In this document: in pieces, positions 57,054 through 57,398 of the stretch | How positions within the stretch are numbered: the stretch's first letter is position 1 | How the letters are laid out: each line of letters opens with the position of its first letter | NCBI GenBank assembly: GCA_001817065.1 | Contig: MHHQ01000025.1 | Span: forward strand, 55,528-119,527 | Direction: 5' to 3' | Length of the DNA stretch: 64,000 nt | DNA from: Candidatus Andersenbacteria bacterium RIFCSPHIGHO2_02_FULL_46_16 | Lineage (GTDB): Bacteria; Patescibacteriota; Andersenbacteria; UBA10190 | Translations under genes and position numbers: made by a program | Notes under the pieces: generated by a model | Database searches by the model: none | What the model saw: only the letters and a program-made list of their open reading frames with translations | Told to the model about the DNA's origin: nothing

Positions 57054-57398
57054 ATGACCATGCGCCTTAATGCCAAAATATTTATTGAGGGGCACACCGG
57101 GCTCGTTGGCTCAGCTCTCGTCCGTGCTCTTGATAAACGGAGCTATCGTAATCTTATTTTTCTTATGCAGAATTACGACAACGATGAAATTATTAACGTT
57201 GGCACTGGAGAGGATATTAGTATTGCTGATCTAGCCCACCTAATTGCCGATGTAGTTGGTTTTTCTGGTGACTTAATTATTGACTCTACTAAACCAGACG
57301 GCATGCCGCGCCGACTGCTTAATGTCTCGCGGCTACACGAGCTCGCATTTTTTCACCGCACCATCTTAGTCGAAGGTATCAAATCCACCTATGATTGA
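57054..57398 (+). pseudogene. fcl remnant: GDP-fucose synthase paralog with an in-frame internal deletion of about 190-200 codons
   Basis: The 114-aa ORF joins an Fcl N-terminus (KIFIEGHTGLVGSALVRALDKRSYRNLIF, compare [29 protein letters not shown] of the intact fcl at 41748..42704) directly to an Fcl C-terminus (EIINVGTGEDISIADLAHLIADVVGFSGDLIIDSTKPDGMPRRL, compare EIINVGTGEDINILDLVEMLKTVVGYSGEIVLDGTKPDGMPLRRL). The catalytic core is missing. Confidence 0.8.

Follow-up and report, generated by a model that had tools for sequence, protein, structure and literature searches.

The locus examined here raises the question of how an open reading frame (ORF) of only 114 codons, which carries both ends of a sugar-nucleotide enzyme without its middle, came to lie in a polysaccharide island of Candidatus Andersenbacteria, and of whether its product retains any activity. 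The window, that is, the whole stretch of 64,000 nt that was analysed, contains this ORF two genes upstream of a gene for a ColD-like dehydratase, and the public records name it "hypothetical protein" or "nucleoside-diphosphate-sugar epimerase". With a probability of about 0.9, judged from sequence comparison, the ORF would be a recently formed pseudogene of a full-length Fcl-type gene in a population of Candidatus Andersenbacteria (Parcubacteria/CPR). The features on which the argument depends are collected in Table 1.

Table 1. Positions in the window of the remnant ORF, its parts and the genes related to it.
Feature	Position	Strand	Description
Remnant ORF	57054..57398	+	114 codons plus TGA; probable pseudogene of the ColD-linked GDP-L-fucose-synthase-family gene; colinear with the intact ortholog L010:9037-10017
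Retained 5' segment	57054..57160	+	Gene nt 1-107, residues 1-35; Rossmann beta1 strand and GxxGxxG motif
Deletion junction	57153..57160	+	Single copy of CTTATTTT, matching both flanks in the alignment
Retained 3' segment	57161..57395	+	Gene nt 678-912; C-terminal substrate-lobe residues (ortholog 226-304)
Premature stop	57396..57398	+	TGG>TGA at ortholog Trp305, motif TY-x-W
Former 3' end of the gene, now untranslated	57399..57464	+	Holds the second nonsense change
346-aa protein, no known family	57448..58488	+	Conserved downstream partner of the Fcl-like gene or remnant in all relatives examined
ColD-like PMP-dependent sugar 3-dehydratase (DegT family), predicted	58543..59751	+	Intact in the window
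Second Fcl paralog, 318 aa	41748..42704	-	Intact; candidate provider of the lost activity; about 14 kb from the remnant

Comparison of the ORF with the intact Fcl of the same window by BLASTP returned two colinear segments, with residues 3-36 of the remnant matching Fcl residues 1-34 (56% identity, E 2e-10) and residues 38-113 matching Fcl residues 226-301 (51% identity, E 7e-27), and about 191 residues missing between them. The ORF joins the first 35 residues of a protein of the GDP-L-fucose synthase family to the last 79 or so, and some 190 from the middle are gone. The initial annotation, made without database searches, had described an in-frame, internally deleted Fcl paralog that kept the first 35 or so and the last 80 or so residues and lacked 190-200. 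The two BLASTP segments and the deletion described below bear this out, and the estimates were accurate. The NCBIfam model of GDP-L-fucose synthase also matched the remnant in two stretches (E 2.5e-33), the best of which covered profile positions 218-299 of 308, and the Pfam Epimerase domain was recognised over the first 35 positions only. The score of the remnant, 115.8 bits, does not reach that of a full-length family member, for which the curated cutoff of NF047922 (GDP-L-fucose synthase) is 500 bits; the intact ortholog described below (457 bits) and the other Fcl of the window (436 bits) are also under this equivalog cutoff. Descent from Fcl is apparent in the Rossmann segment with GxxGxxG at the N-terminus and in the lobe at the C-terminus, both of which are colinear with family members. 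The frame of the remnant is still open, with its start codon, and is separated by 4 nt from the gene upstream. As one flanking gene ends at 57049 and the other begins at 57448, the gap between them (57050..57447) is too short to leave space for a hidden or frameshifted missing middle. The minus strand opposite the remnant holds only a 43-codon ORF. A search of window positions 56-58.5 kb against Rfam gave no match, and a scan of the same interval for promoter- or terminator-like sites gave no excess over chance.

The undeleted state of the gene is found in a sister lineage represented by three loci (L010, L011 and L012), which were reached through cluster variants of the downstream 346-aa protein; the relatives used for synteny came from exact-protein look-ups. 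These three loci are 86-87% identical to the window at the nucleotide level and agree with it in gene order, and in each of them the slot occupied by the remnant holds an intact gene for a protein of 324-326 aa. The syntenic ortholog of L010, encoded by a 981-nt gene (326 aa), can be aligned with E. coli Fcl from end to end (1bws, E 1e-107, 51.1% identity), and the two ends of the remnant are 91% and 88% identical to its two ends. In E. coli Fcl, Ser107, Tyr136 and Lys140 form the SDR catalytic triad, and Cys109 and His179 are the residues of epimerisation. The equivalents of Ser107, Cys109, Tyr136, Lys140 and His179 in the ortholog are S110, C112, Y139, K143 and H182, all five of which sit within the deleted residues 36-225, so that the remnant has none of them. 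With every catalytic residue gone, the question of remnant activity is settled and, as had been proposed from the sequence alone, the 114-aa product is predicted to have no enzymatic role and to be incapable of catalysis. Thus, the intact ortholog resembles E. coli Fcl/WcaG/GFS (1bws, 1bsv, 1e6u) in its Ser/Tyr/Lys triad and its Cys/His epimerisation pair, and the remnant shares with this family the N-terminal GxxGxxG strand and the C-terminal KPDG...LG...TY region. Unlike E. coli Fcl, however, the remnant lacks both residues 36-225 and the last approximately 22 codons, and it is a gene fragment rather than an enzyme.

The slot gene was also compared with ColC, the corresponding enzyme of colitose synthesis. 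The colitose pathway proceeds through a 4,6-dehydratase (Gmd), then ColD, and then the reductase/epimerase ColC (PMC8987622). In the record of E. coli O55:H7 the gene beside colD is annotated as a GDP-L-fucose synthase family protein, which shows ColC to be a homolog of Fcl. The intact ortholog shares 35.5% identity with E. coli O55 ColC and 51.1% with E. coli Fcl, and the other Fcl of the window is likewise nearer to E. coli Fcl than to ColC. By this measure the ancestral slot gene would be an Fcl and not an ortholog of ColC; it is a paralog of the second Fcl of the window, to which the intact ortholog is 54.5% identical. In its setting, nevertheless, the ancestral gene would have resembled ColC (WbdJ) of E. 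coli O55:H7, an Fcl-family paralog located beside a ColD-type 3-dehydratase in a surface-polysaccharide cluster, and both the E. coli O55 genome and this clade possess a separate fcl in addition to the ColD-linked paralog. Unlike E. coli colC, the ancestral slot gene is separated from the ColD-like gene by the 346-aa protein of no known family.

Alignment with L010 revealed that the window has lost exactly 570 nt, equivalent to 190 codons (residues 36-225), in frame. The initial annotation had proposed that the breakpoints be placed by aligning the ORF with the second Fcl and with the genes of relatives, and that short direct repeats be sought at the junction. The 5' segment is part of a 3160-nt ungapped alignment to L010 (87% identity) that ends at window position 57160, corresponding to L010 position 9143, and on the other side window position 57153 corresponds to L010 position 9706. 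The 8-nt sequence shared by the two flanks, CTTATTTT, occurs twice in the intact ortholog, 570 nt apart (gene nt 100-107 and 670-677), L010 being a sister lineage rather than the true ancestor. Both copies lie in the same codon phase, each encoding Leu-Ile-(Leu/Phe). Matching 8-mer pairs account for 14 of the 473,851 position pairs in the intact gene, and the pair formed by the two copies is one of these 14. Breakpoints that fall on so rare a pair are not a matter of chance, and constitute the signature of a slipped-strand or microhomology-mediated deletion. The reading frame was preserved because the two repeats are 190 codons apart, that is, a multiple of three nucleotides, a geometry due to accident and not to selection. 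The junction is clean, both flanks deriving from the same gene with no foreign or inserted DNA, and a blastn search of the window for the deleted 570 nt did not find them elsewhere.

The events that would explain this structure begin with an ancestral Fcl-type GDP-4-keto-6-deoxymannose epimerase/reductase of about 326 aa, encoded in a conserved operon-like module just upstream of the genes for the 346-aa protein and the ColD-like 3-dehydratase. The alignment shows that a single deletion of 570 nt between the in-phase copies of the repeat removed the whole catalytic core, and that the 3' tail of the remnant then gained two stops while conserved positions took on several substitutions. The deletion probably arose by slipped-strand mispairing (replication slippage) or by microhomology-mediated repair. 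Slipped-strand and microhomology deletion between short direct repeats is an established route of bacterial gene decay. The remnant resembles the pseudogenes formed in this way in its single clean deletion, bounded by an 8-nt direct repeat of which one copy is left, in its subsequent nonsense and non-conservative substitutions, and in the further decay of the same gene in a related lineage. Nothing essential differs in the present case; what is slightly unusual is the small-genome CPR host and the frame kept by chance. Recognisable pseudogenes are thought to be uncommon in small-genome CPR bacteria.

Changes subsequent to the deletion are visible in what is left of the gene. The Fcl sequences examined, those of the ortholog and of E. 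coli among them, all have the tryptophan codon (TGG) that has become the stop of the remnant. Four codons past this TGA, a second nonsense change relative to the ortholog (CAA>TAA) is found at 57408-57410. In the intact ortholog the frame runs past both positions and shares its last 17 nt with the start of the next gene. Neither the two 3' nonsense mutations nor this ancestral overlap with the downstream gene had been part of the initial annotation. The retained parts differ from the ortholog by 13 amino acids, and five of the differences (A12E, G30S, F76I, D90N and G98A) affect conserved columns, at which the ortholog has the consensus residue and the residue of the remnant is found in 0-3 of 40 full-length family members; A12E adjoins the GxxGxxG motif. 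Relaxed selection after the lesion is suggested, with small counts that are also statistically compatible with residual constraint. Compared with the ortholog, the remnant has a dN/dS of 0.17, a value not demonstrably raised with 13 amino acid differences; the neighbouring genes have values of 0.06-0.18. As the value of the remnant is near those of the neighbours, most of the divergence would predate the lesion, which makes the lesion recent relative to a dS of approximately 0.4. Overall, the locus combines the features by which a pseudogene is recognised: an intact syntenic ortholog in a close relative, a 570-nt deletion and two nonsense codons.

The remnant is not peculiar to a single assembly. 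At least 24 contigs, assembled independently and taken from NCBI, ENA, JGI and Logan, carry the identical ORF. Ten loci (L001-L008, L013 and L014) match the window with an identity of at least 99.9% and show no variation in the remnant. This identity across all available strains leaves no population variation with which to test neutrality. Elsewhere in the same population, two of these loci (L008 and L013) have eight SNPs within 94 nt in the gene for a 254-aa methyltransferase (window 56556-56649), the strain being otherwise nearly identical, which suggests a short recombination tract.

The order of genes around the slot recurs in more distant relatives, and comprises two consecutive methyltransferase genes, an Fcl-like gene (320-326 aa), a gene for a protein of no family (339-370 aa) and a DegT/ColD-like gene. 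A full-length slot gene is present in L016 (71% amino acid identity), L015 (66%) and L018/L019 (63%; Ca. Andersenbacteria CG10). In L015 the Fcl-like and the no-family genes are kept and no DegT/ColD-like gene was called; a 250-aa ORF without a family is located in the corresponding position (L015:8976-12140). As stated in the initial annotation for the window, a ColD-like gene lies two genes downstream of the slot, and this linkage is found in the window, L010, L016, L018 and L019.

A different situation was encountered in two Logan contigs of 63 and 100 kb (L020 and L021), in which no ORF was found in the slot. What is left there amounts to 342 nt in one (L020:8556-8897) and 233 nt in the other (L021:8666-8898), with several deletions and frameshifts between intact flanking genes. 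Of the gene, L020 retains nt 1-140, 405-521 and everything from 938 onwards, frameshifted; it thus has part of the middle that the window has lost and is without the C-terminal part that the window has kept. Colinearity of L020 with L021 across the 3' junction places that deletion before the two diverged. The flanking genes group the loci as ((window, L010), (L020, L021)), with L016 outside. Given that L010 is intact within this grouping, the loss in the window and the loss in L020/L021 are independent, and the gene has been lost at least twice; the decay in L020/L021 is the older of the two.

The two genes downstream of the slot show a contrasting constraint. The closest solved relative of the ColD-like protein is E. 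coli O55 ColD/WbdK (2gms, E 4.4e-60, versus 2.5e-32 for the CDP-sugar E1 dehydrase), and His replaces the Schiff-base Lys of aminotransferases, the motif GHHMST aligning with SHHIAT of ColD. The DegT fold, the His-for-Lys replacement and ColD as closest solved relative together predict a ColD-type enzyme, in agreement with the initial annotation. Its gene has a dN/dS of 0.043 between L020 and L021, indicating strong purifying selection after the older Fcl loss. Within the population of the window itself, a nonsense substitution (C59117A, Ser192 TCG>TAG) was detected in L006 (GCA_001817175.1) and L014 (an ENA contig). It splits the gene into ORFs of 191 and 194 aa, the stop being three residues past the putative catalytic His189, and apart from it L006 does not differ from the window in about 11 kb, whereas L014 has one further difference. 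Part of the same population therefore carries a knocked-out ColD-like dehydratase. The 346-aa protein had no match in Pfam or NCBIfam, and a contig search for relatives with this protein gave a single marginal match, in Planctomycetota. Its gene is under purifying selection (dN/dS 0.05-0.12), and the protein is a candidate component of the glycan module, for example a glycosyltransferase.

Several features of the remnant could be taken as signs that the 114-aa ORF encodes a functional small protein whose frame is under selection, be it a GDP-sugar-binding or regulatory mini-domain, a dominant-negative partner or a translational-coupling spacer for the gene of the 346-aa protein. Frame, start codon and tight operon spacing are intact, dN/dS against the intact ortholog is low, the sequence is the same on all those contigs, and the overlap between the 3' end of the intact gene and the start of the next one implies that this DNA has a role in the expression of its neighbour. 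Nevertheless, a low dN/dS is what is expected from a recent lesion on a long branch, and the identical copies merely reflect a population that is at least 99.9% identical. The conserved Trp and the C-terminal tail have been lost to nonsense mutations, conserved sites carry residues foreign to the family, and in the sister clade the slot holds frameshifted debris without an ORF between intact neighbours. The initial annotation had named membership of a distinct family of short proteins as the finding that would overturn its reading, and no such family was found. A word-indexed protein search for the architecture of the remnant retrieved only the same protein (P0001), and in an exhaustive HMMER search of 1.84 billion representatives the one match below 1e-30 was the remnant itself. 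With no divergent homolog having the same junction, a conserved family of about 114 aa was rejected, and the reading as two joined Fcl segments stands. About a dozen other short ORFs with N- and C-terminal parts of Fcl break elsewhere, their N-part ending at 22-62 and their C-part starting at 219-267 in ortholog numbering; by their breakpoints they appear to be independent accidents or fragments and not relatives of the remnant. A functional small protein is accordingly regarded as very improbable.

Slightly less probable still is the proposal that the ORF is a scar of recombination, left when a second 6-deoxyhexose module was shuffled or remodelled within a mosaic island. This was the interpretation first given to the locus, which was also taken as evidence of shuffling in the island independent of the foldback elements. 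The island does contain many glycosyltransferase, methyltransferase and sugar-nucleotide genes, and strain-variable foldback repeats are located elsewhere in it. However, intact and deleted lineages do not differ in the order of the genes around the slot, which is conserved down to 63% amino acid identity, with a full-length slot gene in those relatives; both halves of the remnant are similarly close to one and the same ortholog (88-91%), which argues against a chimeric origin; the flanks are colinear with that ortholog, without insert, and meet on the 8-nt direct repeat. The nearest repeat elements (47302-48786) are more than 8 kb away. What had been read as a scar is thus better described as a clean intragenic deletion, and the lesion as the decay in situ of one gene, which gives no evidence on the shuffling of modules, whether dependent on the foldbacks or not. 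As for a collapse between short repeats during assembly, or an error of gene calling, the source is a metagenome-assembled genome and deletions between repeats can arise in silico. An 8-nt repeat, however, is far below the k-mer sizes of assemblers, and two stops and five non-consensus residues are not effects of assembly. The occurrence of the same sequence in at least 24 contigs of independent projects (GW2011, RIFCSP, TPA, ENA k141, JGI, Logan) shows that it is not an assembly artefact, which makes this the least probable of the three alternatives.

The recent pseudogene of an Fcl-type gene favoured here implies that its loss was tolerated. The second Fcl would supply the epimerase/reductase step in trans. 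It is present on the same contig in all three loss lineages (window, L020 and L021), with a dN/dS of 0.04-0.05. If it supplies the step, the linked copy becomes dispensable, which would account for the independent losses of the same gene while the ColD-like gene is still constrained. Such redundancy would be the simplest reading. Gmd was sought in the window and not found, the only other SDR genes being RmlD-like (36585..37685) and GalE/TviC-like (61439..62419). A bolder reading, which is offered tentatively and is on balance unlikely, is that the fucose branch and the 3,6-dideoxy (colitose-like) branch share one ordinary Fcl, or else that the 114-aa product is kept as a non-catalytic peptide. 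In the first case the dedicated ColD-linked paralog would be redundant and would be shed repeatedly in these CPR bacteria; in the second, more speculative, a retained peptide would support the translation or assembly of the downstream 346-aa protein. The modest, testable idea raised by the pseudogene is that one Fcl can substitute for a ColC-type enzyme.

In itself, the gene loss is recent and ordinary, took place in an uncultivated bacterium of groundwater, and adds one more case to a familiar class; of wider interest is only that this CPR clade has lost the ColD-linked Fcl repeatedly. The finding is chiefly useful for annotation. The remnant ORF should be flagged as a pseudogene, and reconstructions of the surface glycans of Candidatus Andersenbacteria should not list it as a second synthase of fucose or colitose. 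As an example of microhomology deletion the locus is textbook-clean and datable, and it comes from a small CPR genome. Together, the losses in the window and in the sister clade and the nonsense SNP that some strains carry in the ColD-like gene show that this glycan module is being trimmed in natural populations.

Some further observations were made along the way. Short ORFs with N- and C-terminal parts of Fcl were noted in public metagenomes (P0042, P0043, P0069, P0072, P0075, P0080, P0132, P0153, P0159, P0172 and P0185), and in P0201 the N-terminus of Gmd is joined to the C-terminus of Fcl, apparently by a deletion across adjacent gmd-fcl genes; these ORFs may be real pseudogenes or products of assembly. 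The foldback repeats of the window, at 47302-47469 and 48613-48786, are real and unrelated to the lesion. They are two G+C-rich elements of about 170 nt, 86-91% identical over the reported repeat segments, that flank an RGP-like gene (47438..48613), and the one at 48613-48786 has inverted arms of 42 nt. Alignments between otherwise identical strains (L002, L003) break exactly at these elements and at 61159-61264, and the elements at 47302-47469 and 48613-48786 resemble foldback (MITE-like) repeats of a mobile or hypervariable kind. Almost the whole window (1-64000) has a strongly negative GC skew (-0.13 to -0.35), whatever the strand of the genes; the exception is 44001-46000, where it is about 0, and this anomaly at 44-46 kb may reflect compositionally foreign DNA or a local anomaly. 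Directly upstream of the Fcl/ColD module, and next to a Capsule_synth gene, a sialic-acid-type module (48880-54495) comprises genes for NeuB, a CMP-sugar transferase family protein, a UDP-GlcNAc 2-epimerase family protein and a 2-hydroxyacid dehydrogenase; the island encodes several distinct sugar pathways.
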